NCBI GenBank assembly: GCA_001920415.1
Contig: MNJR01000004.1
Location: forward strand, 1,479 to 65,478
Length of the DNA stretch: 64,000 bases
DNA from: Acidobacteria bacterium 13_1_20CM_3_53_8
GTDB lineage: Bacteria > Acidobacteriota > Blastocatellia > Pyrinomonadales > Pyrinomonadaceae
Reading direction: 5' to 3'
Position 1 is the first letter of the stretch. Every line of letters starts with the position of its first letter. This document shows, in pieces, positions 2,388 through 60,675 of the stretch. The notes below the pieces were generated by a model, which was not told the DNA's origin, did no database searches, and saw only the letters and a program-made list of their open reading frames with translations. The translations under genes were made by a program, and so were the position numbers.

Positions 2388-4382
2388 TTACTTGTTACTG
2401 ACCGTCAGCGAGACGGTCGTGGTGCGCCGTAGAGAGCCGCCGACGCACGTCACCGTTAATGTGTAGGTTCCTCTTTGCGTGTTTGAGCTGGTACCGACCG
2501 TCAAGACGGACGAACCCGAAGTGTTCACGGATGTCGGGCTGAAGCTGGCAGTAGCGCCAGCGGGCAACCCACTGACACTCAGCGTGACTACCCCGTTGAA
2601 TCCGCCGGAGCCTGCTACGTTGATGCTATAAGAGGTCTGCGCCCCACGCTTGACTGTCTGCGACGAGGGTGTGGCCGAGAGCGCGAAGTTGGGGTTGTTT
2701 ACGGTCAGCGAGACGGTCGCGCTATGTTGCAGGCCGCCGCCGTTGCCAGTAATCGTCAGCGAGTAAGTGCCCAGAGGCGTCGAGTTGCTCGTGACCACAG
2801 TCATGGTTGACGTGCCCGAAGTGTTCACTGACGCCGGACTGAAGCTGGCAGTAGCGCCAGCGGGCAGGCCGCTAACACTGAAGTTCACATCACCGTTAAA
2901 CCCGACGTAGGAAGCGACGCTCACGTTGAAGCTGGTCTGTGTCCCGACCAAAACTGTTTGCCCTGCGGGGCCAGCCGAAATAGAGAAGTCCGGGTGATTG
3001 CAGGCCGTGAGCGCATTGTTGACGTTGAGCCTCCCACCCGTGATAGTCGCGCTCGCCAGGGCGGGGATGAAGTCAACATTGTCGAGCAGCGTGCTCTTGA
3101 GTCGCGTCGTGTCGAGCGTGCAGCGCGAGAGCAGCAGCGCCGCCGCGCCCGAAACGTGCGGGGTCGCCATAGAAGTCCCGCTATAATAGCCGTAGCTAGC
3201 GCCCCTGATGGTTGAAAGTATGTTAACGCCGGGCGCGCCAAGGTGAACTGTGGAGACACCGTAATTAGAGAACGAGGCGAGTTGATCGTTCGGGTCGGTA
3301 GCCGAGACGGCGATCATGTTGGGCGCGTTGTAGCTGGCCGGATAGAAAGGGTCCGCGTCGTTGTTGCTGCTGTAGTTGCCCGCCGCGGCGACGAAGAGCA
3401 TGTCGTTAGAGCTGGCCCTCTCGATCTCATCAAGTAGGGACTGCGAAAAGCCCCCGCCGCCCCAACTGTTCGAGAGCACGCGCACGTTCGCGCCCGCAGT
3501 GCCTGCGAAGACTTGCTTCGCCTGAACTGCGAACTCTATCGCGTTGACGGCGTCGGAGATCGTCCCGCCCCCACCCGAGTTCAAGAACTTTAGGCCTATG
3601 ATGCTCGCTCTCTGATTAACTCCTACCACGCCGACCGAGTTATTGCCGAGCGCGCCTATAGTGCCCGAGACGTGCGTACCGTGGTTGTGGTCGTCCATCG
3701 GGTCGCAACTCATAGTAATGGCGTTGAAGCCGTGCGTGCCTTGGGCGCAGGTGATTGATTGGCCGCCTATAGTAACCGTGAACGATGATGGGGCGGACCA
3801 GACGTTTGCTGCTAAGTCTGGATGCGTGTAGTCAATGCCTGTGTCCACTACCGCGACTACGTTGTTCGCCGAGCCTGTCGTCACGTCCCACGCGCGCGCG
3901 ACACCTATGTCCGCACCAGGGACGCCGCTCGCACCTTGAACGCTCTGCCCATTGTTCTGTAGTCCCCAGAGATTGGGGAAGTCCGGGTCGTCGGGCACGG
4001 TGTCTGCGGAGACTATGTAATCCGGCTCTGCATACAAGACATCAACGCGCGCGGACATCTCTGCCAGCAGCGCCACTGTGCTCTTACTGGAAGAGTGAAA
4101 CAGGTGTACACCCGTGCCGCCAACGCGGTGCACGTCATCGGCGCCCACTTCCTGCCGCGCTTGATCCAAAGCGTTGGGCGTGGTGCGACTGCGGAACTTG
4201 ACCAACACGTTGCCAGCGACGGCCTCGTGCCCGTTAATAACTTCTGTGCGGCGCGGCTCATCGGGAAGCTGGGCCTGAGATGATGCCGTGCGGACTATGA
4301 ACAAGGTGCTTGAAAAGAGACACGCGACAATCAGCAGTAAACGCAGTTCGACCCTGCGGGCAACGACGTTACGACAAAACAT
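2388..4382 (-). CDS. Secreted subtilisin-like serine protease (peptidase S8) with an I9-type propeptide and two C-terminal Ig-like repeat domains
   Basis: Catalytic triad motifs VVDTGIDYTHPDL, HGTHVSGTIG and GTSMATPHVSGAAALL. An N-terminal hydrophobic signal is present. Two ~100-aa C-terminal repeats each contain SGLPAGATASFSP.SVNTSG. Confidence 0.95.
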   Translation of the reverse strand: MFCRNVVARRVELRLLLIVACLFSSTLFIVRTASSQAQLPDEPRRTEVINGHEAVAGNVLVKFRSRTTPNALDQARQEVGADDVHRVGGTGVHLFHSSSKSTVALLAEMSARVDVLYAEPDYIVSADTVPDDPDFPNLWGLQNNGQSVQGASGVPGADIGVARAWDVTTGSANNVVAVVDTGIDYTHPDLAANVWSAPSSFTVTIGGQSITCAQGTHGFNAITMSCDPMDDHNHGTHVSGTIGALGNNSVGVVGVNQRASIIGLKFLNSGGGGTISDAVNAIEFAVQAKQVFAGTAGANVRVLSNSWGGGGFSQSLLDEIERASSNDMLFVAAAGNYSSNNDADPFYPASYNAPNMIAVSATDPNDQLASFSNYGVSTVHLGAPGVNILSTIRGASYGYYSGTSMATPHVSGAAALLLSRCTLDTTRLKSTLLDNVDFIPALASATITGGRLNVNNALTACNHPDFSISAGPAGQTVLVGTQTSFNVSVASYVGFNGDVNFSVSGLPAGATASFSPASVNTSGTSTMTVVTSNSTPLGTYSLTITGNGGGLQHSATVSLTVNNPNFALSATPSSQTVKRGAQTSYSINVAGSGGFNGVVTLSVSGLPAGATASFSPTSVNTSGSSVLTVGTSSNTQRGTYTLTVTCVGGSLRRTTTVSLTVSNK

Positions 4383-4915: not shown

Positions 4916-5305
4916 ATGGCATTAAAGAAAACCATAATGGTTGTTGAGGACAACGAGGATACGCGCGAGCTTCTGCGACTTCATCTGGAGCGGAAGGGCT
5001 ACAAGATACTTGAAGCAGACAACGGCGCACAGGCTGTTGAGCGCGCCGCGCGCGAGCGGCTGGACTTAATCATCCTGGACTTAAGTATGCCCGTGATGGA
5101 CGGCATAGAGGCGGCTGGCAGAATAAGAGAGATGAAACATTTGAAGGAGACGCCAATAATCATTATCAGCGCGCACGGCAATCTTGCCATCAAGCTCTTT
5201 GTAAGCGATAACGTGGCGTCCGCCGGCCCCATTCTTTATCTTCCAAAGCCATTCGAGTGGCCCAACTTCGACCAACTCCTCGCGGACATTCTTCCAGCCG
5301 TATAA
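4916..5305 (+). CDS. Single-domain response regulator (CheY-like receiver)
   Basis: IMVVEDNEDTRELL...LDLIILDLSMPVMDGIEA...TPIIIISAHG. I prefer the ATG at 4916, which is preceded by aggtgagg, over the GTG at 4907. Confidence 0.9.
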   Translation: MALKKTIMVVEDNEDTRELLRLHLERKGYKILEADNGAQAVERAARERLDLIILDLSMPVMDGIEAAGRIREMKHLKETPIIIISAHGNLAIKLFVSDNVASAGPILYLPKPFEWPNFDQLLADILPAV

Positions 5306-5356
5306 GCTCAACGTGAGATTGATATAAGACGAAGTACGAGCAAGTGAATTATCCAC

Positions 5357-5506
5357 TATAGCGGTTCTCACTTGAATGCGACTCATGTCAGTACCGCCTG
5401 CGGTAGCGGGCGGGTCGTAGCCGCACCGATACCCGCCCGCTACCGCAGGCGGTACTGACCTGCATGCCTTGATCAGAGTGGTCGCACCCAAGTGAGAACC
5501 GCTATA
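5357..5506. repeat. 150-bp MITE-like element with 18-bp perfect terminal inverted repeats, carrying the family-A palindrome
   Basis: The inverted repeats are tatagcggttctcacttg (5357-5374) and caagtgagaaccgctata (5489-5506). The flanks read atccac| and |aaccac. Confidence 0.5.
5387..5459. repeat. Family-A GC-rich palindrome, copy 1 (28-bp arms, 17-nt loop)
   Basis: gtcagtaccgcctgcggtagcgggcggg (5387-5414) pairs with cccgcccgctaccgcaggcggtactgac (5432-5459). The arms are identical to those of the copy at 32992-33144. Confidence 0.85.
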
Positions 5507-5623
5507 AACCACACTAAACAACACGAAGAGAAGAATTCGTTTAGTGTAGTTTCGTGTGATGCGCGTGGATAGTTCTATCCCTTTCTTCTTTCTCTCTTAC
5601 GTCGAACTCACGTTAAGCTTCGG

Positions 5624-8260
5624 TCATTCGTCGTGCGGATGGCGTAGTCGCTGGGCTAACGTGCGTATGACGCCTGCTGCTATGGATGGGTCTGCGTTGA
5701 GCGCGTTGCGGAAGGCTTCGCCGCCCAGGCGCAACACATGCGCGCCATGTTCAGATGCGCGCAAGGTCGCAGAGCGCGGCGCGGGGTCTAACACTGCTAG
5801 CTCTCCTATAAAACCTCCGGCCACTTCGCTATTGACCATCTTTTCGCCGAGGCCATCGCGCAACATTACATTGACCTCGCCAGACAATATTATGAAGACT
5901 TCGTTGCCCTCTTCGCCCTCCATGCAGAGCGCCTGACCTGCTGCGTATTCATCTTCACGCGAAGCTCGCGCAAGCTCTGCAAGCGCCCCCGGCCCTAATG
6001 ATGAGAAGATAGGCGCGCTCCTCAGTGCAATCATCTTCTCGACCGTGATGAGATGGTCATGAGCGCCAACCGTGTCCGCACCCATTTCCGCTCTCTCCTT
6101 CAGATGCGCCGCAGTCTCACGCACAAGCTCGTGCTCGTCTCCAAGCATCCTGACTAGAATCTTCGTGTCAGCCGCGCCGCGCTCGCCCAGCGCGTAAAGA
6201 GCAACGGCGCGAACGTAAGGGTCAACGCTGTGTGTACGCTGGGCGAGCGTGTCCGTCATCGTAGGCAGCGACGATTCCGCCAAAGACGTTTCGCGGTATG
6301 CGGCCAAGAGCTTGTCTGCTATAGCCTGCGGCAGACTCGCGCGCAACTGCTCTATGACAGAGACGCGCTCACTCTCTTCCGGGCTGCAGAGTCCTGCGCG
6401 CAAACTTATGGCTTCTTCCTCTTCGAGCGAAAAGCTCAGGCCGCGCGCGAGTATTTCTACGGAATGTGCGCGGCGACGGCGCAACAAGTCTTTCAGAAAA
6501 TCGTGCGTGGGCGACTTTTGTAGATCAAGCACCTGCATGGTCTTTGCCGCTCGCTCGACCGTAGCAATCTCTTCAGCGAGTCGCGCGGCCAATCCGCGCG
6601 AGCCGCCCAACAGATCGTCCAGCACAGCCGCGTGCTCTTCTTCCGTCACGCGGTATTCCGAGCGCAACTGCCGAACGAAACTATCGTCTGCGTTACCGTC
6701 CGCCGCAAGAATTTTTCCTAAAAATTGTTCTAACGCGCGCGAGTAGGTCGCCAATTGCAAACGCTTCTCCACAGTGACCTGTCTGGCCGGATCGCTTAGC
6801 AGCGCTCGATCTTCATCGGCGAGCGCGGCCATCACCTTATCGTGATCCGATTTCTTAATCTGCAACTGGTTGCGCAAAGATTCCAGAAGATGAACCTCTT
6901 CGCGCGTCACGAACCCGTTGGCAAGAGTCTCGCGCACGGCCTCTTTGTAAATCTCTATGGTCTGCGCAGCGCCGCGCGCATTCTCGCGTGAGCGTATGGT
7001 GTGAATCAGGAAAGCTTCATGAAGGTCACGCGGCGGCTGCATGTCATCCCAAATCCAGCGGCGCAGGATGCTGCGAGCCAGCGTCTCTTCCGCGAAATCT
7101 TTGGATTGACGGCGCACGCGGCGCGCTAGCGTGAGCGTTGCGGTGAGCGCGATCAGGATTAGAAAGAGATGCGGGATAGCCCAGGGGAGTTTCCATAGCG
7201 TAGGCGCGCCAGCGAAAGTGTAGAAAGTTAGAAAAGCCGTGAAAGCAGCAATAGAGAAAGTCACATGGCGAACTCTCTGCGCGTCCCCGTCCGTTTCGCG
7301 CCTGCGCAAATAAGCGCCTATGAAAATCTGAAGCCATGAGAAGAGAAGAAAGCTCAGAAGCGCGCAGACGGCCAGCGTTAAAACGGATGCGAGCGAGCGC
7401 GGCATCCCCTGCATGAAGAAGAAGCCAGCCGTCTCCGAATCTCGCCCCGGCAAAAATGCAGTCCAGATGATGCCCGGTTGATTCACCCATGCACCGCTAT
7501 AACCTTCGACGCGCGTGAAGTAGTAGCTCCAAGTGCCCGCTTGCAGGTAGTAGTAGAAATAGAAGCCGAAGACCAGACCGGGAAATGCGTAATAGACGAA
7601 TCGCTTCGCTGTGAGATTAATCTCTTTCCAGTAGCCATTCTCTTCATTGATATCCGGGCACGCGTGCTTGCATGCCGTGCACTTCTCGCATTGCGAGTTC
7701 AAGGTGGTGCGAAGCCCGTGCGGTTCTGTGTAAATCTTTTCGATGAAAGAGACAGGACAAAAGTAGTTGCACCATGTCTTGCCAGTGTAGAGCGCGCCTG
7801 TGACGAGCGCCGCAAGCGAGATTATGATGAAGAAGATGCTGATGCTCGCGCCGCTTCCGTTCGTAGCAATAAGACGCAGCCAGAGCGAGAAGAAGAAGAC
7901 CGCGAACGAGACGTAATAATAGTTTCTCTCAAGCCACTCGGAAGCTTTGAGCGTTCCCGGTCGGCGCAACATCACAGGGATTTGCGAGAAGAACGCGAGC
8001 GGGCAGATGCGCCGCCAGCGATGATAGCCAATGAGAACTATGAAGAGCGGCAGCGCGGCTATCATTACAGTCCACACCACGCGCCCCGCGAAGCGTTGCA
8101 CGAAAAAGGCGAAGACGGGAAGAACGACGAAGACCGCGAGCGCAACCCATCTGATAGGCTCGACCCATTGCTCGTTGTCGGTCTCCGTTTGCGATTGCCC
8201 CGCCAACGGCAGCGTTCGCGCGGTCGGCGCGGCGGGCATTCTGGGGGATGCTACGGCCAT
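5624..8260 (-). CDS. Multi-pass membrane protein with NapH/YccM-like 4Fe-4S cysteine motifs, fused to a helical/HEAT-repeat region and a C-terminal cyclic-nucleotide-binding domain
   Basis: Cysteine motifs RRICPLAFF, GKTWCNYFCPVSF and CEKCTACKHACPD sit among TM helices. A HEAT-like stretch reads DPYVRAVALYALGERG...LGDEHELVRETAA. The cNMP domain reads GEEGNEVFIILSGEV...FIGELAVLDPAPRSATLRA. Confidence 0.8.
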   Translation of the reverse strand: MAVASPRMPAAPTARTLPLAGQSQTETDNEQWVEPIRWVALAVFVVLPVFAFFVQRFAGRVVWTVMIAALPLFIVLIGYHRWRRICPLAFFSQIPVMLRRPGTLKASEWLERNYYYVSFAVFFFSLWLRLIATNGSGASISIFFIIISLAALVTGALYTGKTWCNYFCPVSFIEKIYTEPHGLRTTLNSQCEKCTACKHACPDINEENGYWKEINLTAKRFVYYAFPGLVFGFYFYYYLQAGTWSYYFTRVEGYSGAWVNQPGIIWTAFLPGRDSETAGFFFMQGMPRSLASVLTLAVCALLSFLLFSWLQIFIGAYLRRRETDGDAQRVRHVTFSIAAFTAFLTFYTFAGAPTLWKLPWAIPHLFLILIALTATLTLARRVRRQSKDFAEETLARSILRRWIWDDMQPPRDLHEAFLIHTIRSRENARGAAQTIEIYKEAVRETLANGFVTREEVHLLESLRNQLQIKKSDHDKVMAALADEDRALLSDPARQVTVEKRLQLATYSRALEQFLGKILAADGNADDSFVRQLRSEYRVTEEEHAAVLDDLLGGSRGLAARLAEEIATVERAAKTMQVLDLQKSPTHDFLKDLLRRRRAHSVEILARGLSFSLEEEEAISLRAGLCSPEESERVSVIEQLRASLPQAIADKLLAAYRETSLAESSLPTMTDTLAQRTHSVDPYVRAVALYALGERGAADTKILVRMLGDEHELVRETAAHLKERAEMGADTVGAHDHLITVEKMIALRSAPIFSSLGPGALAELARASREDEYAAGQALCMEGEEGNEVFIILSGEVNVMLRDGLGEKMVNSEVAGGFIGELAVLDPAPRSATLRASEHGAHVLRLGGEAFRNALNADPSIAAGVIRTLAQRLRHPHDE

Positions 8261-8311: not shown

Positions 8312-8528
8312 TTTTAAGCCGTCGAAGACGGCGACAGAATAAAGCCCAGCGCGTGAGCGCTGGGTAAGTATGCCAGTTAAGTTTATCAAAGCCCGCGTGA
8401 GCGGGCGACAGAGCGAGATAATCAAAAGGGCTGTCGCTATCTTCGATAGCTCTCTTTATTACTCTCTGACGCTAACCCGGCGCTTACGCACCGGGCTTTA
8501 TGCTGTCGCCGTCTTCGACGGCTTAAAA
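8312..8528. repeat. 217-bp composite palindromic element with ~53-bp terminal inverted repeats (REP/MITE-like)
   Basis: The left end ttttaagccgtcgaagacggcgacagaataaagcccagcgcgtgagcgctggg matches the reverse complement of the right end cccggcgcttacgcaccgggctttatgctgtcgccgtcttcgacggcttaaaa. A third copy of the AAAGCCC..GTGA..GGG mini-hairpin lies at 8388-8406. Confidence 0.75.
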
Positions 8529-11074: not shown

Positions 11075-11266
11075 TTGAATTCCTCCTATCGAGTTCGCGC
11101 CTGTTCAGAGCAAAAGCGCAAGACCGAAAACCCTTGCGAAGAATTAAGAGCGGCGGGAGACAAACAGCTTTCCTCTGCTGGCTTTATATTCAAACCTGAG
11201 AGAGAAAGTTGTCAAGCAGACACTTCTGCGCCATAGGGACGATTCATTCTTGATAGAAAAGAGTTA

Positions 11267-11338
11267 TCCACTAAATCACACTAAACGACACGAAACTGCT
11301 TGAAGCTCCCTTCGTGTCGTTTAGTGTGATTTGGTGGA
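11267..11338. repeat. Family-B hairpin (28-bp arms, one G-T mismatch), downstream of the sigma-54 regulator gene
   Basis: tccactaaatcacactaaacgacacgaa (11267-11294) pairs with ttcgtgtcgtttagtgtgatttggtgga (11311-11338). Confidence 0.85.
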
Positions 11339-11384
11339 CGACTTCTCCTCTTATAAGGCCCATGAAGACGGAAACAATTTCTAT

Positions 11385-12791: not shown

Positions 12792-14848
12792 CCTACTGTC
12801 TCCCCTTCGCGCCCCTTTGCGGCGGCTGGCAATCGTATGGTGAACGTAGTGCCCGCGCCGATTGCGGACTTCACATCAAGCCGCCCGCCGTGATCCTCTA
12901 CGATACCATAACAGACGGCCAGGCCAAGCCCTGTGCCGCGCCCAACCTCTTTCGTAGTAAAGAAGGGATCGAAGATTTTAGTCAGATTTTCCGGCGCTAT
13001 CCCTAACCCTGTGTCGCTCACTTCGACTATCACATGGCCGTCTTCGTTTCGCGCGCGAAGCGTCAAGCGTCCGCCGTCAGGCATAGCATCAATCGCGTTG
13101 GTTGCGAGCGCAATCACGGCCTGCTGCAACTGCCCTTCGTCGCCTTCGATTATGGCCGTATCCTCGCCGACTTCAACGTGAATCTCAACACGCGCGCCGC
13201 GCTTTTGATGTGCGACGAGCCGTGCGGCTGACGCAAGCACGCCCGGCAGATTAACGGGCGCGTGCTCTCCTACGGCGCGTGTGTGGCTGAAATCTAATAG
13301 CCCGTTCGTAATAGTCTTGCAACGAAAAGCCTCGCTGCGAATGATGCCCAAATATTCCCTCAAATCTTCGACCTCTGAGGAAGCGTCGAACGCGCCTTCA
13401 CGCGCGCGCGATTCCAAGGCTTCGGCGCAGGCCGAGATGGTTGCGAGCGGGTTGTTTATCTCATGCACGACCCCGGCGGCGAGTCGTCCGACAGCCGCTA
13501 GCTTTTCGGCGCGAGCAACTGCTCGATTGGCCTGAACTCGCGCAGTGATGTCTTCGCCCACAGTGATTACGTGCGAGACTTCGCCGCCGTCTTCGGCGCG
13601 CATAGGGATTTTGCTGACAAGCCAGTGGCGAGTTTCGCCGCTCATTCCTGCGGACTCCTGTTCAATGCGTTCAATCTCTCCGGTCTTGAATGCGCGCGCG
13701 AACTCGCGTTCTAATCTTTCGCGGTTCTGCTTGGTCAACACATCGAAGATTTTTCTTCCCATCACGCGCCCGCGCGGAATACCCAGTTGGCCCAACTCAC
13801 GATTGCGATTCCACGCGACTATACGGTAATCGCGGTCAACCGCGTAGAGCGACAGTGGCAGGCTGTCAATAATAGCTTCTGTGAAGCGGCGCTGGCTTTC
13901 GGCCTCAGCCGTTCGTCGCTCGACTTCGCGCGCGAGCGTGACGGATGAAGCGCGCGCCGCAGCGTAGAGCGACGAGACGTGCGCGGCCAGCGCCGCCTGC
14001 TGAGCCGCAGCGTCAACCAATCTAGTAGCGTTTTCATTAAAATCCTTTTCGCGGTCGAACGAGACTATGAGCGCGCCGCGCGTGCGACTGCGAAACCTGA
14101 GCGGCGCGGCATACTCAATTTTGTGAGACGTATCAAGCAGAAAAAATTTTTCCTGCTCATTCAACAGAGCGGCGCGCGAAGCGGCTGGCGACGAGAGCCA
14201 TTGATTCATGCGCTCAATTTGAATCAAGTTCTCGCCTTCAGCGCTTCCTTCACGATCAAAGACGCAGACATGAGCGCCTCTCTCTTCATCTTTAATCACA
14301 GCCGCGCAGAGCGTTGCGCCAGTAGCTTCGTAGGTCATGCCCGCCACAATGCGAACGACCTGTTCAGGTTCCGTCGCGCGCAGCAAGCCCCGACCCAAAT
14401 CCGACAGGAACTGCAACTCGCGGTTTGTGCCAAGAAGATTCCACTCGCGCGCGGCAGCCTTCAGATGAGCGTTCACGCGCGAGACCAACTCACGCTCGCT
14501 CGAAGATTTCAGTATGTAATCGTCCGCCCCTGCGTTGAATGCTTCGACCTTGCGATTCTCGTCGTCGCTAGAAGTGTAGATGATTATGGGAAGTTTTTCC
14601 GTAGCTTCCTGCGCGCGCAGCAATCTGCATAGAGCGAGTCCGTCAACCTCCGGCATCGTCAAATCCAGCAGAACAAGGTCGCAGCCTTCCCTGTGCAGCG
14701 TGGAAAGGGCTGACGGCGCATCCTCGACCGAGACGACGCGATGCCCCTCGCCCCCAAAAATTTTTTCCAGACTGCGGCGCGTCTGCTCGTCGTCATCAAC
14801 GACCAGAACAGTTGCGCCTGTGGCGATTGCTTTTTCGGAAATCAGCAT
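12788..14848 (-). CDS. Hybrid sensor histidine kinase (N-terminal receiver, GAF/PAS-like sensor region, HisKA, HATPase_c)
   Basis: Receiver motif VLLDLTMPEVDG, H-box HEINNPLATI, then NAIDAM and GTGLGLAVCYGIVEDHGGRL. Confidence 0.9.
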   Translation of the reverse strand: MLISEKAIATGATVLVVDDDEQTRRSLEKIFGGEGHRVVSVEDAPSALSTLHREGCDLVLLDLTMPEVDGLALCRLLRAQEATEKLPIIIYTSSDDENRKVEAFNAGADDYILKSSSERELVSRVNAHLKAAAREWNLLGTNRELQFLSDLGRGLLRATEPEQVVRIVAGMTYEATGATLCAAVIKDEERGAHVCVFDREGSAEGENLIQIERMNQWLSSPAASRAALLNEQEKFFLLDTSHKIEYAAPLRFRSRTRGALIVSFDREKDFNENATRLVDAAAQQAALAAHVSSLYAAARASSVTLAREVERRTAEAESQRRFTEAIIDSLPLSLYAVDRDYRIVAWNRNRELGQLGIPRGRVMGRKIFDVLTKQNRERLEREFARAFKTGEIERIEQESAGMSGETRHWLVSKIPMRAEDGGEVSHVITVGEDITARVQANRAVARAEKLAAVGRLAAGVVHEINNPLATISACAEALESRAREGAFDASSEVEDLREYLGIIRSEAFRCKTITNGLLDFSHTRAVGEHAPVNLPGVLASAARLVAHQKRGARVEIHVEVGEDTAIIEGDEGQLQQAVIALATNAIDAMPDGGRLTLRARNEDGHVIVEVSDTGLGIAPENLTKIFDPFFTTKEVGRGTGLGLAVCYGIVEDHGGRLDVKSAIGAGTTFTIRLPAAAKGREGETVG

Positions 14849-15109
14849 CTTTTACAGAGGAGGACGACCGCTGGGCTGGAAGGCTCGCGCTGCCTGCGAG
14901 TGGTCGCTTAAAGACGCGCGCACTCGAATCGTCTGAGCGCGGCTTCAACTAACCGGGTCGGGATGGCATCAAACAGGCATGAGCGCCGCATCGCTCTCAA
15001 TTTAATTGAAAGCGATTGCAGGTAAGGATGTCAAGAGGATAAAAGCTTTGTTAACTTCCCATAGGATTCGGGAAAAGAATTATGAGGTTCAGCAGCAAGT
15101 GGATATATT

Positions 15110-15586
15110 CTAATTGTGAATGGCATCCACAATAAGCCGCGCGAATTGCTTCCTTAGCTGTTTCTCATCTTCGGCGTCAGAACCCTTAACATATATATAG
15201 ACCAAAAAATTATGCTTTCTAAAGACGAATGAGTTAAGACTACCCCATGAATAACCTTCTTCCCCTGAATCAGTGGAACTCCTATTCGCTCTCATGCTAG
15301 CGGCGAACTCTCGCATACTTTTTGCTGCCTCTTCCTGTGACGGGTAGCGAACAATTGTAATCTTCACTACTTTACCATCAGATGCCCACTGTTCTAATGC
15401 CACATCTCGACTGCCTTCAATAGGTGGGACCGAAGTATGGCTCCATCCTTGGTTTTGCTCTTCTACGGAACGTACTAGCCTATCTACGACATCAGACAAT
15501 TCTGCTGATTTACTTTGTGCTTTCGATAGTGCTGAAGCATAAAGCAAAACAATTACTGCAAAACATAACGCCGCTGGTTTTCTCAT
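15110..15586 (-). CDS. Small secreted protein of unknown function
   Basis: 158-aa ORF with signal peptide MRKPAALCFAVIVLLYASALSKA and an AGGAG Shine-Dalgarno sequence. It lies in an AT-rich island. Confidence 0.6.
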   Translation of the reverse strand: MRKPAALCFAVIVLLYASALSKAQSKSAELSDVVDRLVRSVEEQNQGWSHTSVPPIEGSRDVALEQWASDGKVVKITIVRYPSQEEAAKSMREFAASMRANRSSTDSGEEGYSWGSLNSFVFRKHNFLVYIYVKGSDAEDEKQLRKQFARLIVDAIHN

Positions 15587-15613
15587 GTGTGAACTCCTGA
15601 TTGAAAGCTCAGC

Positions 15614-16177
15614 TTAATTCTCTGGATTCTTCGGTACAACTTCAAACGTAATTGAAGAAGATTCAACCCAATCTTGACCAAGATTAAACCGGTGTTTGAG
15701 AGATAGCTGGTAATGCCCCGGCTGAAGCGTCTCATACCAATCATCCAGAAAGAGGTATCCGACTATTTTCGACTCATTCGAATTTAATTTAACAGCATAA
15801 ATATTACCTACAAAGGGGTCATCTTCTACCCCTTTTAAGATTTCATCCAGTCCTTTTTTGTAAGGTACAACTTGCCCGCCTCTTAATAGCTCAAGACGAT
15901 TTTGAAAATAGGGGTTTAAGATAGGTATTGTTACTTGTGCTAGAGATGTATTCGTCGCCTGAATCCGAAAATGAATTCTTGCTCCTACTTTATAAGGTTC
16001 TGTTAAGGCTCTGGGGTCTTCATTTAGTTCCAGCTTTCTCGGTAATAATTCCAGTCTAATAACCCTTGGGTTTTCCGGTGGCAAGCTGTTTTGGTTTCGA
16101 GTCTGCCCTTGGCCGGTAATCATCACATAACCGATAAGAAACAGCATCAATAAGAACGGAACATTTTGTTTCCTCAT
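15614..16177 (-). CDS. Small secreted protein of unknown function
   Basis: I prefer the start at the ATG at 16177 (MRKQNVPFLLMLFLIGYVMITG), which is preceded by AGGAG. The longer ORF reaching 16267 would overlap the upstream gene by 80 nt. Confidence 0.6.
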   Translation of the reverse strand: MRKQNVPFLLMLFLIGYVMITGQGQTRNQNSLPPENPRVIRLELLPRKLELNEDPRALTEPYKVGARIHFRIQATNTSLAQVTIPILNPYFQNRLELLRGGQVVPYKKGLDEILKGVEDDPFVGNIYAVKLNSNESKIVGYLFLDDWYETLQPGHYQLSLKHRFNLGQDWVESSSITFEVVPKNPEN

Positions 16178-16187
16178 GTCGCTACTC

Positions 16188-18281
16188 CTATGGGCAAGGG
16201 TGAAATTGTCTCTGGTTTCTGTATTCATAACTTGTAATGAACGCATTGATGACTCCTGTATAATCACCTGTGCGGTTTAATACATCAGTCCAAAAGGCAA
16301 GTCCGCCTGGCTCTGGATCCCTTTGCAGGAAATTTCGATAGCAGTGTGAAACAAAAGCTCGGTTGTAAACCGACGGATCGAAATTGGGTGATCCTGGCGG
16401 GTTTGCCATTGCCGGGTCTGTCTGCTGAAACTCAGCTGATCTAAAGAATTCATTGGCGACCACATTGCGTTGCGAACCGATGCAATTCCTATCAAATTCG
16501 CATCTAGCGATCTGGGAAGTCCAGAAGTCCAATCCTCCTTGATCCGGCTCACGTGAGAGAAAATCCCAATACTGCTGCTTAACGAAACATCGCGCACCAT
16601 CAATCATGTTGTTACTGAGCGCAGAATCTCCTGGGCACGCGCCATAGTTCGAATTAACAGTACCATGTAAAGTAGGTAAACTATTAATCCCGGCTAAGAA
16701 GATTGAAGGTGTATTGGAAAATTGTAGCCGATACTTTACGAAAGATACAGATGGATCAAAAATCACTTGGCCGTTCCATCTCCATCCGATGTAACTGAAT
16801 TGATAATTATTTTCCGTAGCAAGTTTCAGCGGCTGCTCATACATGGGAAGTAATGGGTCACCCACATAATAATAGACATAAGTCTGGAAGCGGTCATCAA
16901 CAAAAAGCAGATCATTCATAGAAAAGTAGATGGAAGATGGGTCATATGAATCAAGGGTATCAGCAGGAGGATCGAAAGCATTATACGTTAGAACATTCCC
17001 TTGAGAGAAGTTTGGGGCTGGATGCGCAAAAATAGTTACGGCATCAGAATCGAGTTGCCATCCTGTATCCACTTGATCCTGTGATTGCCGCACTGTAATA
17101 CACTCAAAGTTGCCGTTTCTAACATCATTTACACGTTTACGGAATGCGCTCACAAACTGTTTGATTTTTATGCCGCTCTGTGCAGGATCAGATAGATACT
17201 GGACAGAAGGTATTTGTACACGGGCTGTAAATATTATTCCGTCGTCAGCTCCGCCTTGATAACAGCCTAATGAATATATAGCTCCTGGTAAACCAGTGGT
17301 GCAATGTCTGTCTCTACTTACTTGGTCTGATGTAGATTGTGCCGTAAAACTTGAAAGGGTAGGTAGAATCACATTTACATTTACGGATGCAGGAATACTC
17401 ATTCCACTTTCGGAATAGGTAACCGATGCCTTGTAGCTGCCGGGCTTCTTCCAGCGAATAATTGGTGACGGGATATTCGTTCCACCTACTAGATCGTAAT
17501 CAGTCCCCTGCTGTCCCGTAAAACTCCACGCGTAAGTACCGCTTCCCGCCGGAGAGAGACTAGCTTGTAACCTGACATCTGCACCGATAAGCGCATTTTG
17601 CGTAGTACCACTAAGATTACCGCTCACTCTCGGATTTGTAATGCTGAGAGTTGGATTCGGGGTGAACGTAATATCATCAAAGCCTATTCCATATACGTCT
17701 GTGACGTTGTAGATACGTATTCTTGTGATCTTAGTGCCAAAAGAGCTTAGGTCGTCAAAAAGTGGATAATAGCTTGAGCCATAGTAGTTATTGATAGGAA
17801 CGGTTCGCGCATAAGTTCCATTTTCCCAAATGTCAATCTGGGCAATAGTACCGTAGTTATCAGGGCCTACAATATAAAAAGAAAGATTCTTCACAGGCCA
17901 CTTAAAGTCGAGAATGAGTTCATGATGAGAGTCGTATCCAGTGCCAGAGGTAACGAAATTTGGCGACGACGAGGTAACACAATAGCCGCAATAATTCCAT
18001 GTATGTGAAGGATGGTAAAAATTATCCTCAGAAGAGAAAGTAACTTGTGGATATTGTGAGCCGACGACAGTGTTATTTGGAAGATTGTCAAAATTTATGA
18101 TAACCGGATCTATCGCATCAGGACCATTATCGTCTTGCGCTATCGTTAGTTCAGTAAATGTAAAGACCAGGGCTATACATAACAGCACATAAAGGGAAAT
18201 CTTAAGTCTAATAATAGATCGCAAAGCAAATGAAATTGAGGAAGGCGAAGAGAATATACTACGGAGGGGGAAGCGCATCAC
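16188..18281 (-). CDS. Secreted multidomain protein with Ig/PKD-like middle region and two C-terminal DUF4214 repeats
   Basis: N-terminal hydrophobic anchor. The DUF4214-type motifs are QQYWDFLSREPDQGGLDFWTSQI and CYRNFLQRDPEPGGLAFWTDVLN. It is a paralogue of the tail of the protein encoded at 22845-24398. Confidence 0.8.
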   Translation of the reverse strand: MMRFPLRSIFSSPSSISFALRSIIRLKISLYVLLCIALVFTFTELTIAQDDNGPDAIDPVIINFDNLPNNTVVGSQYPQVTFSSEDNFYHPSHTWNYCGYCVTSSSPNFVTSGTGYDSHHELILDFKWPVKNLSFYIVGPDNYGTIAQIDIWENGTYARTVPINNYYGSSYYPLFDDLSSFGTKITRIRIYNVTDVYGIGFDDITFTPNPTLSITNPRVSGNLSGTTQNALIGADVRLQASLSPAGSGTYAWSFTGQQGTDYDLVGGTNIPSPIIRWKKPGSYKASVTYSESGMSIPASVNVNVILPTLSSFTAQSTSDQVSRDRHCTTGLPGAIYSLGCYQGGADDGIIFTARVQIPSVQYLSDPAQSGIKIKQFVSAFRKRVNDVRNGNFECITVRQSQDQVDTGWQLDSDAVTIFAHPAPNFSQGNVLTYNAFDPPADTLDSYDPSSIYFSMNDLLFVDDRFQTYVYYYVGDPLLPMYEQPLKLATENNYQFSYIGWRWNGQVIFDPSVSFVKYRLQFSNTPSIFLAGINSLPTLHGTVNSNYGACPGDSALSNNMIDGARCFVKQQYWDFLSREPDQGGLDFWTSQIARCEFDRNCIGSQRNVVANEFFRSAEFQQTDPAMANPPGSPNFDPSVYNRAFVSHCYRNFLQRDPEPGGLAFWTDVLNRTGDYTGVINAFITSYEYRNQRQFHPCP

Positions 18282-37442: not shown

Positions 37443-37522
37443 TGAGTGATAAGAAAGTCTGGAGTAAGAAGAGAAGAAGCTGACAGCTAATAGCTATCAG
37501 TTATTAGCTTTTGACTCCAGAC
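37439..37522. repeat. Composite element: solo family-C half-arm (GTGATGAGTGATAAG) plus a family-F core inside a GTCTGGAGT/ACTCCAGAC hairpin
   Basis: agctgacagctaatagctatcagttattagcttttgactcc (37478-37518) is about 85% identical to 57129-57168. The CBM9 stop TGA (37440-37442) lies in the C-type arm. Confidence 0.7.
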
Positions 37523-37589
37523 TTTTTTACCACTATCTAGCATCTGACATCTGCTTTTTGTGTCTCTCTCAAAAATTCGTTAGGCCATC

Positions 37590-42077: not shown

Positions 42078-42214
42078 GTGATAAGTGATGAGTGATAAGT
42101 GATAAGAGGAAGAATACAGAAGTCAGGAGTCAGAATATGAAGCTATTATCTTCTGAATTCTGTATTCTCACTTCTGCGTTCCCTTCTTATCACTTATCAC
42201 TCATCACTTATCAC
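42078..42214. repeat. Family-C hairpin: perfect 29-bp arms of GTGATAA/GTGATGA heptads with a second inverted repeat in the loop
   Basis: gtgataagtgatgagtgataagtgataag (42078-42106) pairs with cttatcacttatcactcatcacttatcac (42186-42214). The inner repeat is agaatacagaa...ttctgtattct. Confidence 0.9.
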
Positions 42215-49060: not shown

Positions 49061-49132
49061 TCCACGAAGTCACACGAAACAACACGAAAACTGATTGAGT
49101 TCTCTTCGTGTTGTTTCGTGTGACTTCGTGGA
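49061..49132. repeat. Family-B hairpin, perfect 28-bp arms with a 16-nt loop
   Basis: tccacgaagtcacacgaaacaacacgaa (49061-49088) pairs with ttcgtgttgtttcgtgtgacttcgtgga (49105-49132). Confidence 0.9.
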
Positions 49133-54044: not shown

Positions 54045-54200
54045 AAAGCAGTGACAAGTGACTAGCAAGAGAGAATTTTTAATCTTTAATCTAAATCTTT
54101 TTCAGTTTACAGAAATAAGCTAATTGCGTTCACTTAATTTATGTAAATGAAAAATTAAAAGTGATTCCTGCTCGTCACTTGTCACTTGTCACTGCTTTTC
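54043..54200. repeat. Hairpin with GAAAAGCAGTGACAAGTGAC arms (GTGACAA heptads) and an AT-rich ~118-nt loop between convergent genes
   Basis: gaaaagcagtgacaagtgac (54043-54062) pairs with gtcacttgtcactgcttttc (54181-54200), a perfect 20 bp. Confidence 0.85.
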
Positions 54201-57081: not shown

Positions 57082-57083
57082 AA

Positions 57084-57204
57084 GTGATAAGTGATGAGTG
57101 ATAAGTGATAAGTGATAAGAGAGAAGATAGCTGACAGCTATTAGCTAATGGCTATTAGCTTTGACTCCAATCTTTCTTATCACTTATCACTCATCACTTA
57201 TCAC
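57084..57204. repeat. Family-C hairpin with a family-F core in the loop
   Basis: The left arm is five GTGATAA/GTGATGA heptads (57084-57118) and the right arm is cttatcacttatcactcatcacttatcac (57176-57204). The loop holds agctgacagctattagctaatggctattagctttgactcc. Confidence 0.9.
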
Positions 57205-57954
57205 TAAATTATCGTATGCCCACTCAACGCCGCGTGGGAGTTTAGGGGAGTCACGCTCGTGCCGAACATCGTGCGCGATGTGCGTAAAGAAAGTTCTACG
57301 AGGTTTTAATTCACTCACATATTCAAGCGCGCGTTCTACCCACAGGTGCGTGGGGTGTTCGCGGAAGCGCAGGCAGTCGAGCACAAGTACATCAAGACCA
57401 CTGAGCGCAGCAATCGTGGCGGGCGGAATCTCGTTCAAATCAGTTGCGTAGGCGAAGTCGTTGAAGCGATATGCGATGACTGGCAGGCGACCGTGAATCA
57501 CCTCAAGGGGCGTGACCTGCAAATCAGGGCCGATGCAGAATGGCGCGCCCGCGACGACCGTGTGCGCAAGGATTTGCGGCAGGCCGCCGCCGAAGTATGT
57601 AGGCTCGAAGACGTACTTGAAGATGCGGCGAATGTCTACCCAGGCGCGCTCGTTGGCATAAACGCCCAAAGCGCCGTGCCGAAAGTTTAAGGGGCGAATG
57701 TCATCGAGTCCGAAGATGTGGTCGGCGTGACAGTGCGTGATGAGAACGGCGTCTAGCCACTTTATTTTTTGACGAAGAGCTTGCTGTCGAAAATCCGCCG
57801 AAGTGTCAACGAGAACCGTCTGCCCTCCATGCTCTATCAGAACCGAAACGCGCAGCCGCTTGTCGCGCGCATCATCCGACACGCACGTCTCACACTCGCA
57901 CCCGATGGACGGCACGCCTGTAGAAGTTCCAGTTCCGAGAAAGGTCAGCTTCAT
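57187..57954 (-). CDS. MBL-fold metallo-hydrolase (PhnP/GPMB-like)
   Basis: Motif THCHADH (HxHxDH). The last five codons (VISDE) and the stop lie inside the family-C arm. Confidence 0.85.
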   Translation of the reverse strand: MKLTFLGTGTSTGVPSIGCECETCVSDDARDKRLRVSVLIEHGGQTVLVDTSADFRQQALRQKIKWLDAVLITHCHADHIFGLDDIRPLNFRHGALGVYANERAWVDIRRIFKYVFEPTYFGGGLPQILAHTVVAGAPFCIGPDLQVTPLEVIHGRLPVIAYRFNDFAYATDLNEIPPATIAALSGLDVLVLDCLRFREHPTHLWVERALEYVSELKPRRTFFTHIAHDVRHERDSPKLPRGVEWAYDNLVISDE

Positions 57955-58035
57955 CAGTTTTCAGTTTTCAGTTTTCAGTTTTCAGATGAAGCGAAAAGCT
58001 TTTACTTAAAACTGAAAACTGAAAACTGAAAACTG
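57955..58035. repeat. Family-E hairpin: (CAGTTTT)4 / (AAAACTG)n arms
   Basis: cagttttcagttttcagttttcagttttcag (57955-57985) pairs with ctgaaaactgaaaactgaaaactg (58012-58035). It fills the whole gap between two minus-strand genes. Confidence 0.9.
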
Positions 58036-58621: not shown

Positions 58622-58757
58622 CTTAACTCTTCCCTGAAAGACGCAGAAGCCTCAACCGCGTAGGCCGCTTCCGAAGCCATGCGCCATAATCTATGAAATT
58701 TCATTTGATGTCTTGATGGTAACATCCCTATCTGCGCGCTCGCAAGAAAGCTAAAAA

Positions 58758-58888
58758 CAGTTTTCAGTTTTTAGTTTTCAGTTTTCAGAGTAAGAACCCG
58801 GCTTGGAGGATGCGAACCAAAGCTTTAGACTCTAACCCTGGACTGTTGAGATACGAACTTAAAACTGAAAACTAAAAACTGAAAACTG
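58758..58888. repeat. Family-E hairpin, second copy, with a 76-nt loop in a divergent intergenic region
   Basis: cagttttcagtttttagttttcagttttcag (58758-58788) pairs with ctgaaaactaaaaactgaaaactg (58865-58888). It ends 5 nt before the mazG ATG. Confidence 0.9.
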
Positions 58889-58893
58889 CTCTT

Positions 58894-59730
58894 ATGTCCG
58901 ATTCATTTGATGATCTGGTTGCGTTGATGGCTCACTTGCGCTCCGCTGCGGGGTGCCCGTGGGATAGGGAACAGACCTTTGAGACTCTTGCGCCTATGCT
59001 GGTTGAAGAGGCTTATGAAGTTTTCGAGGCTGCGCAGGTGGCAAGCGAAGGTCGTACAGAAAACCTTCGGGACGAACTCGGCGACCTTCTTTTCCAGATA
59101 CTCTTTTATGCTCAAATTGCGTCGGAGCGTAATGAGTTCACGATTGACGACGTTGCGCGCGCAGTCCACGCGAAGATGGTGCGCCGTCATCCGCATGTGT
59201 TCGGTGATGCACAGGCGGAGACTTCCCCAGAAGTTCTGCGTAACTGGGAAGAGATAAAAGCTGTAGAGAAGCGCGCTGCGGGCGACGCCGAGCGACAGGA
59301 CAAATCTTTGCTTAATGAGATTTCATTGAAGACTCCGGCGCTTGTTGAAGCCCGAAAACTTTCGTCCAGAGCAGCGCGAGTCGGCTTCGACTGGAAGCAG
59401 TTGGAAGACATCTTCGATAAGCTGCACGAAGAGATAGAGGAACTACGCGGTGCCATACGCGAGCGCGATGAATCCAGTTCAGGCGAGGCATCCGAGACGC
59501 GCGTGAATGAAGAGATAGGAGATGTGCTCTTCGCAGTTGCGAACATCGCGCGCCATTTGAAGGTCGAGCCTGAATCAGCCCTGAAACTCACAAACCGCAA
59601 GTTCCGCCGCCGCTTTCGTCACATCGAGCGAAAATTAATGGAACAAGGTCGAACACTCGAAGACGCCACGCTCGACGAGATGGAGGCGCTGTGGCAGGAA
59701 GCGAAAAAGCAGGTGACAAGTGATGAGTGA
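58894..59730 (+). CDS. mazG: Nucleoside triphosphate pyrophosphohydrolase MazG
   Basis: Motifs CPWDREQTFETLAPMLVEEAYEV and ELGDLLFQ, plus a second EEIGDVLFAV repeat. Confidence 0.95.
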   Translation: MSDSFDDLVALMAHLRSAAGCPWDREQTFETLAPMLVEEAYEVFEAAQVASEGRTENLRDELGDLLFQILFYAQIASERNEFTIDDVARAVHAKMVRRHPHVFGDAQAETSPEVLRNWEEIKAVEKRAAGDAERQDKSLLNEISLKTPALVEARKLSSRAARVGFDWKQLEDIFDKLHEEIEELRGAIRERDESSSGEASETRVNEEIGDVLFAVANIARHLKVEPESALKLTNRKFRRRFRHIERKLMEQGRTLEDATLDEMEALWQEAKKQVTSDE

Positions 59731-59844
59731 TAAGTGACAAGAAAAAGACGAACTGCTATCTTATTTGCTGCGACCTGTTGGCGGTCTGATGTGGTCGCAA
59801 CTCCTCTTGTTGTTTCTTATCACTCATCACTTATCACTCATCAC
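59713..59844. repeat. Family-C-type hairpin (GTGACAA/GTGATGA/GTGATAA heptads), imperfect
   Basis: gtgacaagtgatgagtgataagtgacaag (59713-59741) pairs with cttatcactcatcacttatcactcatcac (59816-59844). The MazG codons VTSDE and its stop lie in the left arm. Confidence 0.8.
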
Positions 59845-59855
59845 GAGGTATTGAT

Positions 59856-60557
59856 ATGGCAATGATTCAGTTCGTTCAGAATTACGATGATCTTTCGACG
59901 GATAGAGGCTTTCAGTTCAAGTTCCACTGCGACAAATGCGGCAACGGTTTCATGTCGCACTTCCAGCCTTCTACGCTTGGCACGGCAGGGTCGCTGCTGC
60001 GCGCCGCAGGAGATTTATTCGGCGGCTGGGCTAGCTCCGCAGGAAACTCTGCATACGAGATGCAGCGCGCCGTAGGCGGCAAGGCGCACGACGAGGCTCT
60101 GATGAAAGCCGTCGCAGAGGGCAAGGAACATTTTCATCAATGCTCGCGCTGCGGTCGCTGGGTCTGCCCGGAAGTATGCTGGAACGCTAACGCAGGTCAA
60201 TGCGAAGATTGTGCGCCCGATTTTCAAGAGGAGATGGCTTCGTCGCACGCTCATGCCAAAGCCGAAGCTGCGCGCCAGCAACTCTACGAGCGAGCGCAGC
60301 AAACAGATTACGCCTCGAACATTGATATGGGCGTAGACGCTCACGTTCGCGCGCCATCGCCAGCAGCGCAGCAAAAGGCAGCCGCCGCTGCCAACTGCTC
60401 GTCGTGCGGCGCTGAAGTCGGCAAGGCGAAGTTCTGTCCCGAATGCGGCGCGCCCACCAAGCCACAGAAGCTCACCTGCCCCGGCTGCGGCCATCAGCCC
60501 GAAGGCTCGCCTAAATTTTGTCCTGAATGCGGAATGAAACTGCCGCTCATAAGTTAA
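59856..60557 (+). CDS. Zinc-ribbon domain protein
   Basis: CxxC pairs: CDKCGN..., CSRCGRWVCPEVC, CSSCGAEVGKAKFCPECGAP and CPGCGHQPEGSPKFCPECG. Confidence 0.7.
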   Translation: MAMIQFVQNYDDLSTDRGFQFKFHCDKCGNGFMSHFQPSTLGTAGSLLRAAGDLFGGWASSAGNSAYEMQRAVGGKAHDEALMKAVAEGKEHFHQCSRCGRWVCPEVCWNANAGQCEDCAPDFQEEMASSHAHAKAEAARQQLYERAQQTDYASNIDMGVDAHVRAPSPAAQQKAAAAANCSSCGAEVGKAKFCPECGAPTKPQKLTCPGCGHQPEGSPKFCPECGMKLPLIS

Positions 60558-60675
60558 GGCAAAAGGTAAAAGTAAAAAGGCAAAAGTGCGGCGGAAGCCA
60601 ATTTTTTAATAAAAGATGGTTTCAGCCTTCCTTTTGCCTTTTACCTTTTTCCTTTTTACTTCTCCCTTTGCCTTC
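60556..60675. repeat. Family-D hairpin between convergent genes
   Basis: Left arm: aaggcaaaaggtaaaagtaaaaaggcaaaagt. Right arm: cttttgccttttacctttttcctttttacttctccctttgccttc. The loop core is gcggaagccaattttttaat. Confidence 0.8.

Follow-up and report, generated by a model that had tools for sequence, protein, structure and literature searches.

A probable IS630-derived MITE with a palindromic cargo within nested intergenic hairpins of an acidobacterial genome

The closest described counterparts of the small element analysed in this work are MITEs and the insertion sequences that share their ends. RUP and the Correia elements of Neisseria are flanked by duplicated TA. In Nostocaceae, the small dispersed repeats and heptamer (STRR) hairpins treated by Elhai et al. 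in 2008 are reportedly nested in one another and inside MITEs. RUP of Streptococcus pneumoniae is a 107-bp MITE with terminal inverted repeats (TIRs) that resemble those of IS630-Spn1 (PMC3049150), and mobilisation by ISNpu3-like elements has been proposed for the Nezha MITE of Anabaena/Nostoc (PMC3184786; PMC3049150). For ISY100, the transposase alone suffices for excision and integration; insertion occurs almost exclusively into TA, which is duplicated, and 30 bp per end work like the full element (PMC2170065).

Here, we examined a 64,000-nt stretch of the genome of Acidobacteria bacterium 13_1_20CM_3_53_8 (the window), in which a nest of hairpins takes up the whole of the 318-bp spacer that separates two convergent genes. 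Very probably, an IS630/Tc1-mariner-type MITE was inserted at a TA inside an intergenic hairpin (family B), with a GC-rich palindrome (family A) as its cargo. The features of the locus are as follows (L numbers denote loci fetched for comparison).

4916 to 5305, + strand: flanking gene for a single-domain response regulator of 129 aa (Pfam Response_reg, 1.9e-24), with the stop codon TAA at 5303-5305
5304 to 5329, + strand: left arm of the outermost imperfect inverted repeat, 26 nt, 81% complementary to 5595-5620
5309 to 5619: 311-bp block (whole nest), absent from the orthologous spacer of L105 (JGI Ga0066671_10027129) in an alignment with that contig
5346 to 5356: outer left arm of the family-B hairpin (GAATTATCCAC), upstream of the insertion; pairs with 5565-5575 and aligns with the family-B copy at 11262
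5357 to 5358: left copy of the putative duplicated TA target site; TA precedes most 16-mer termini elsewhere, and in the intact family-B copy this place is taken by one TA
5359 to 5504: putative MITE proper, 146 bp, non-coding, IS630-family-derived by its termini; no Pfam match, homologue at L028:3405-3546
5359 to 5384, + strand: left TIR (TAGCGGTTCTCACTTGAATGCGACTC), 24/26 to L103 End1 (the transposase-3' end) and 18/26 to the other end, End2
5384 to 5462: family-A GC-rich palindrome, the putative MITE cargo, with arms 5384-5415 and 5431-5462 and a 15-nt loop; also in the L028 MITE
5479 to 5504, - strand: right TIR (reverse complement TAGCGGTTCTCACTTGGGTGCGACCA), 22/26 to L103 End1 and 20/26 to End2, with a VAPK* remnant
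5505 to 5506: right copy of the putative duplicated TA target site; TA is on the right side in 28/28 paired elements elsewhere, among the matches listed
5507 to 5575: remaining left arm, loop and right arm of the family-B hairpin, from inverted repeats and from BLAST and MAFFT against other family-B copies
5595 to 5620, - strand: right arm of the outermost imperfect inverted repeat, pairing with 5304-5329
5624 to 8260, - strand: convergent flanking gene for an 878-aa cNMP-binding/HEAT protein (Pfam), with the stop codon at 5624-5626

The element belongs to a well-known kind, that of IS630-derived MITEs comparable to Nezha or RUP (PMC3184786; PMC3049150). With the IS630 family (IS630 and ISY100/ISTcSa of Synechocystis, in the Tc1/mariner superfamily), it shares a duplicated TA and the termini of ~1.0-kb DDE_3/HTH_Tnp_IS630 elements, but it has no transposase, and both of its ends appear to come from the same (transposase-3') end. 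The likeness to Nezha lies in a length of 130-170 bp, non-coding sequence, IS-type TIRs, flanking direct repeats, a stable hairpin, and filled and empty sites (PMC3184786; PMC3049150), and is one of traits rather than of compared TIR sequences; the present host, in contrast, is an acidobacterium, and the interior of the element, with its family-A palindrome, is a different sequence. In RUP and Correia elements, sequences and hosts are unrelated to those here, and neither has a separate GC-palindrome cargo. The window is also rich in hairpins armed with tandem heptamers, one of them within a family-A loop, which can be likened to the STRR hairpins of Nostocaceae by form only, the phylum being a different one.

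The initial annotation had described a 150-bp element bounded by perfect 18-bp inverted repeats and containing a GC-rich palindrome. The repeats are present exactly as claimed, with TATAGCGGTTCTCACTTG at 5357-5374 (+) and 5489-5506 (-), and so is the palindrome (5384-5415/5431-5462, 32-nt arms, 97%). With up to three mismatches, TATAGCGGTTCTCACTTG has three matches in the window against 0.04 expected from 100 shuffles, none of which reached three; the third match, at 2377-2394, is degenerate. When extended to 26 nt, the inverted repeat retains 92% complementarity. The length needed revision: while an inverted-repeat-bounded unit does occupy 5357-5506, the family-wide element boundary lies between TA and TAGCGG..., which leaves 146 bp (5359-5504) for the element proper. 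No coding capacity was found in these 146 bp, and the ORFs that overlap them (5081-5524, - strand) had no Pfam match. Folded as single-stranded DNA, the whole 326-nt stretch forms nested hairpins at -96.8 kcal/mol (z = -15.6). A CRISPR-like or tandem-repeat reading of the nest was set aside, as its units are inverted and not direct. A permissive Rfam search of 5000-5900 returned mir-8515 at 39 bits (gathering score 100) and Termite-flg at 29.6 (40), which we regard as chance matches to the GC hairpin.

The window holds a single copy of the MITE, plus a doubtful solo end at 2377-2394. The sequence there, TATAGCGACTCTTACTTG, is TIR-like with three mismatches, is preceded by TA, and overlaps the stop codon of an S8 peptidase gene (2388-4382, - strand); a solo IS630 end is one possible explanation, a chance match (0.04 expected per window) the other.

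The termini connect the element to a wider group. A scan of the GTDB collection (one genome per species) for the exact 16-mer TAGCGGTTCTCACTTG found at least 103 matching loci, the exact-match requirement biasing both copy numbers and host range. At least nine TA-flanked loci are in at least seven Pyrinomonadaceae/Blastocatellia/Acidobacteriota MAGs, and most of the matches listed are in Nostoc, Scytonema, Calothrix, Tolypothrix, Heteroscytonema, and other filamentous cyanobacteria (many of them Nostocales). In many filamentous cyanobacteria among these matches, the 16-mer ends both IS copies and MITEs. When the matches listed were lined up, only TA was conserved on the 5' side of the 16-mer, preceding it in 78 of 102 scorable ends (dinucleotide background 5.7%), and positions -5 to -3 were A-rich. 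The 16-mer loci without TA, most of which are in unrelated phyla or have a coding context in common, look like chance or genic matches. A search for a partner repeat no more than 3 kb away and with at most three mismatches defined 28 paired elements among the matches listed, and these fall into two length classes, MITEs of 35-216 bp and full elements of ~1003-1079 bp. Further copies with the same termini, which had been suggested as a check together with 6-bp duplications, are therefore plentiful, but their flanks are TA...TA (27 of the 28 paired elements, among the matches listed) without 6-bp duplications.

Two full elements, L103:1343-2348 from an acidobacterium and L022:1733-2763 from Scytonema, carry the transposase in two ORFs; that of ISY100, by contrast, is a single ORF (282 aa). 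The ORFs of the full elements match Pfam DDE_3 (1e-33 to 1e-35) and HTH_Tnp_IS630, the transposases score above the cutoff of the NCBIfam equivalog transpos_IS630, and the catalytic ORFs of the two elements are 49% identical. The transposase stop codon lies within the terminal repeat: the right IS end holds the codons for the final nine residues and the stop, HCGYSVACK* (L103:1343-1375, L084, and L022:2725-2763), in the sequence ...CAAGTGAGAACCGCTA. This coding overlap between the repeat and the C-terminal end of the transposase gene, stop codon included, probably explains both the strong conservation of the terminus and its 16-bp identity despite 49%-identical transposases in two phyla.

The window element has terminal repeats of this IS630 family. 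Its first 16 bp are identical to L103 End1, with L084, L010, and L055 similar, and over 26 bp both of its ends are closer to End1 than to End2. Remnants of the transposase C-terminal codons (VAxK*) are kept at both ends. Both also carry TGCGAC at positions 19-24, an acidobacterial IS-end signature, where the cyanobacterial elements have TGCAATACA. The End1-type signature at both ends points to a MITE in which one and the same IS end, the transposase-proximal one of an acidobacterial IS630-family IS, is present twice. Searches of the 64-kb window by tblastn with acidobacterial IS630 ORFs as queries gave no significant match to a transposase, and among the matches listed, full-length IS copies of the matching acidobacterial type are found only in other acidobacterial MAGs. 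A literature search for the terminal sequence string found no paper containing it among those searched.

The flanks of the element read ...TTATCCAC before it and AACCACACTAAACAACACGAA...GTGTGATGCGCGTGGAT after it. Once 5359-5506 (the element with one of its two TAs) is deleted, the flanks read ttatccac-TA-aaccacactaaacaacacgaa, which compares with ttatccac-TA-aatcacactaaacgacacgaa in the intact family-B copy at 11262. By BLAST, the reconstructed hairpin is 93.5% identical to 11264-11294 over 31 nt spanning the junction, and a MAFFT alignment of the four family-B copies has no gap at the insertion site. The proposal that the insertion splits the left arm of a family-B hairpin is thus borne out. 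Intact family-B copies are at 11262-11343, 34089-34225, and 49061-49132 in the window, none of them with a MITE. TA flanks alone are indistinguishable from a terminal TA belonging to the element; at this locus, TA stands at both 5357-58 and 5505-06, and the paralogous copy at 11262 has a single TA. This uninterrupted paralogue provides the empty site that the initial annotation had called for. An orthologous site with family B but without the MITE was not found, the orthologue in L105 lacking the whole 311-bp nest and not the MITE alone.

The family-A palindrome occurs both inside and outside the MITE. L028:3405-3546, from the Pyrinomonadaceae MAG SMAG_U3489, aligns with the window element over its full length in reverse orientation, through the IS ends and the palindrome with its unequal spacers, 4 nt on one side and ~20 nt on the other; it has TA on both sides and flanks otherwise unrelated to those in the window. 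The palindrome therefore travels within a MITE subfamily. Family A would have entered the ancestor of this subfamily instead of inserting separately at the window locus, and the claim of a third insertion event fails on the L028 MITE, which has the same palindrome and the same asymmetric spacers at an unrelated TA. The initial view of the inverted-repeat-bounded unit as mobile and non-autonomous, in turn, agrees with its IS630 termini, its TA flanks, and this homologous copy at an unrelated site. Solo family-A copies were found at 32992-33144, the second copy in the window, and at L028:5428-5500. Across copies, arms of 29-32 nt are conserved and the 15-16-nt centre is different in each. The arms show paired changes (CGGTAGC/GCTACCG in the window and CGTGAGC/GCTCACG in L028), and each holds a small internal palindrome, read from the sequence as TACCGC-CT-GCGGTA. 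In the solo copy at 32992-33144, the loop holds an 82-nt hairpin (33025-33106) with arms of AAAAG[GT][CA] heptamers, and no target duplication is visible.

Around these inner layers, the complete 311-bp nest appears as a presence/absence polymorphism between close lineages. L105, a JGI soil contig of a related lineage with 96.9% nt identity over the cNMP gene and 97.7% aa identity in the response regulator, lacks window 5309-5619 and has the empty form CCGCATAAGCTTCTCCTCATTCG. Its spacer, TAAGCTTCTCCTCA, corresponds to TAAGCT[C AACGTGAG...CTCACGTT AAGCT]TCGGTCA in the window, and the fully empty junction sequence is TAAGCTTC. This absence supports a gain or loss of the outer layers and does not speak to the MITE alone. 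AAGCT stands at both edges of the nest (5304-5308 and 5615-5619), which could reflect a 5-bp duplication made when the outermost unit inserted or, equally well, a slippage deletion of a long palindrome in L105. Other copies of the outer arms (5300-5348 and 5571-5625) were absent from the window and from the ~1.3 Mb of fetched loci. An identical filled locus is in NCBI GCA_002384175.1, and the exact response-regulator protein (ATG start at 4916) is in four assemblies, all filled or broken inside the nest; the protein translated from the first GTG start was not on record.

The 878-aa protein has dozens of homologues at 63-68% identity, named Pyrinomonadaceae bacterium by NCBI. These homologues and the MITE shared with L028 make a host within or near Pyrinomonadaceae (Acidobacteriota) most likely; tblastx of the window against the fetched loci added no information on the host. 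In two sister species (86-87% aa identity), the cNMP gene is followed by short, hairpin-free spacers of 25-56 nt and a different downstream neighbour, and these spacers weakly support a gain in the window lineage. The nest (~5300-5620) coincides with a synteny breakpoint against L189:5581-5636 and L190:5581-5605; where the window has the response regulator and peptidase, the sister species have, downstream of the cNMP gene, a 4HBT thioesterase and then an AMP-binding enzyme. A metagenome scan of more distant relatives did not find the response regulator as a neighbour, and a true outgroup for the junction was not found. The window is not of cyanobacterial origin, a sigma-54 activator adjoining the locus.

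Alternative accounts concern both the element and the nest. According to the initial annotation, a 150-bp element (5357-5506) had duplicated a 6-bp target, leaving ATCCAC (5351-5356) and AACCAC (5507-5512). This 5/6 direct repeat exists and adjoins the 18-bp inverted repeats, but it is native to family B because the arms of that family are built of short CACAC-type units, and the insert-free copy at 11262 already reads ATCCAC-TA-AATCAC. Nothing beyond TA is conserved or duplicated at other loci among the matches listed, and TA is what IS630-family elements duplicate (PMC2170065). We give a 6-bp duplication virtually no credence; the real duplication would be the 2-bp TA, as expected for IS630/Tc1-mariner. 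It is also highly improbable that the unit is of the REP/REPIN type (mobilised by a RAYT Y1 transposase), or a structure such as a selected bidirectional terminator, and not a DDE-transposon derivative. Such a nature would suit the core, a long GC-rich palindrome whose loop varies and which also occurs solo, as well as the paired changes in both arms between genomes and a position between convergent genes. In form, the family-A core does resemble REPINs and RAYT-mobilised REPs (Bertels & Rainey 2011, PMC3116915), with ~29-nt inverted arms, a ~15-nt poorly conserved spacer, solo intergenic copies, and no visible target duplication. However, a RAYT origin leaves unexplained why the 26 bp at either extremity are TA-flanked IS630 ends; the unit is bounded by these and not by REP ends, and no RAYT gene was noticed. 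The GTAG (or CGTC) head of REPs is not conserved in family A, the window having GGTAGC where L028 has GTAAGC/GTGAGC (GTAG becoming GTGA/GTAA). A terminator-like T-tract is missing, and no Rfam family matches the unit at its gathering score. A consensus scan of 5200-5700 for promoters and terminators found nothing, so that a classical intrinsic terminator role is not supported. The REPIN or structural interpretation may apply to the family-A core alone.

As for the nest, a single-step arrival of all layers (outer hairpin, B, MITE, and A), whether as one composite or through recombination, would agree with the simultaneous absence of all of them from L105 at a clean junction with AAGCT on both edges, and with the synteny breakpoint against the sister species at this site. 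We nevertheless consider it unlikely, given that neither a second copy of the outer arms nor a MITE-carrying family-B copy was found in the window or the ~1.3 Mb of fetched loci, that the three other family-B copies have no MITE, and that ~97% nt identity to L105 leaves time for several events. Short direct repeats around a stable hairpin are a classic substrate for precise deletion. That the nest is ancestral and was lost from L105, through slippage or deletion at the AAGCT repeats on either side of this long and unstable palindrome, is accordingly a possibility to be kept in mind, if a minor one, as 5-bp direct repeats do flank a hairpin of -97 kcal/mol. The two sister species, with 25-56 nt of hairpin-free spacer after the same gene, speak against it even though the neighbouring gene differs, and the hairpins at 8312-8528 and 11262-11343 are also missing in these species, which suggests gain in the window lineage.

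If the MITE was inserted at a TA within a family-B hairpin, the events may be pictured as follows. Two ~26-bp IS ends, each with the last transposase codons and stop, would flank the family-A palindrome and short spacers. An IS630-family transposase encoded elsewhere in the genome would bind both terminal repeats through its N-terminal helix-turn-helix domain, excise the element by double-strand breaks, and integrate it at TA, and repair of the 2-nt stagger would duplicate this TA (5357-58 and 5505-06). The family-B intergenic hairpin would already have been there, with the targeted TA in its left arm, and is itself placed centrally in a further imperfect hairpin between the two convergent genes. 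We infer the order of the insertion events from the locus as it stands, and mobilisation of the MITE in trans because the ISY100 transposase alone suffices with 30-bp ends (PMC2170065); any effect on the transcription of the flanking genes is likewise putative.

There are other hairpins in the window that differ among lineages. The family-B hairpin at 11262-11343 is missing from the orthologous intergenic spacers of the sister-species contigs L189 and L190, and family-B copies are therefore lineage-specific gains or losses. A 217-bp unit at 8312-8528, with 57-nt imperfect inverted arms that each consist of smaller GC hairpins, is missing from the orthologous spacer of the same two contigs, which carry their own heptamer-repeat hairpins there. 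Intergenic hairpins such as these turn over quickly, whatever makes them. Heptamer-armed hairpins were found at 37445-37534, 42078-42214, 54050-54186, 57083-57205, 57955-58035, 58752-58894, 59713-59837, and 60556-60661. The heptamers in hairpin arms of the window (AGTGATA/AGTGATG, CAGTTTT, and AAAAGGC) resemble cyanobacterial STRR repeats despite the acidobacterial host. The GC content is 0.44-0.49 in window 14001-18000, compared with ~0.55 elsewhere.

Similar combinations are seen in cyanobacteria. L007, L015, L030, L068, L083, and other cyanobacterial loci have MITEs with the same terminus and differing, lineage-specific internal palindromes or heptamer-repeat hairpins (for example, GGGACAATTCATGAATTGTCCC and AAGGCAG/AAGGCAC repeats). 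Hairpin cargo seems to be a general habit of the MITE group with the TAGCGGTTCTCACTTG terminus. A broader idea, which we regard as rather doubtful, is a hierarchy of separately mobile hairpins that insert preferentially into one another, in loops or in stems, and are then spread as IS630-MITE cargo; it would be the acidobacterial equivalent of the small dispersed repeats known from cyanobacteria. If true, this hierarchy (A, B, and heptamer-armed hairpins, without target duplications) might have to do with exchange across phyla, the partners being soil cyanobacteria, in which the same IS630 terminus occurs.

These results correct the anatomy of the element to 146 bp with a TA duplication, from 150 bp with a 6-bp duplication, and tie one of the many hairpins in the window to a known transposition mechanism. 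Nested repeats of this kind fragment short-read metagenome assemblies: ENA, Logan, and JGI contigs (L186, L187, L188, and L001, from three datasets, with one ENA contig per side) end inside the nest, amounting to three independent cases. Such nests mark intergenic sites of fast turnover and could serve as strain markers. Beyond this locus, Pyrinomonadaceae and filamentous cyanobacteria have in common an IS630 lineage whose terminus is very conserved, and in Pyrinomonadaceae and cyanobacteria alike, its MITE derivatives carry lineage-specific palindromes as cargo.
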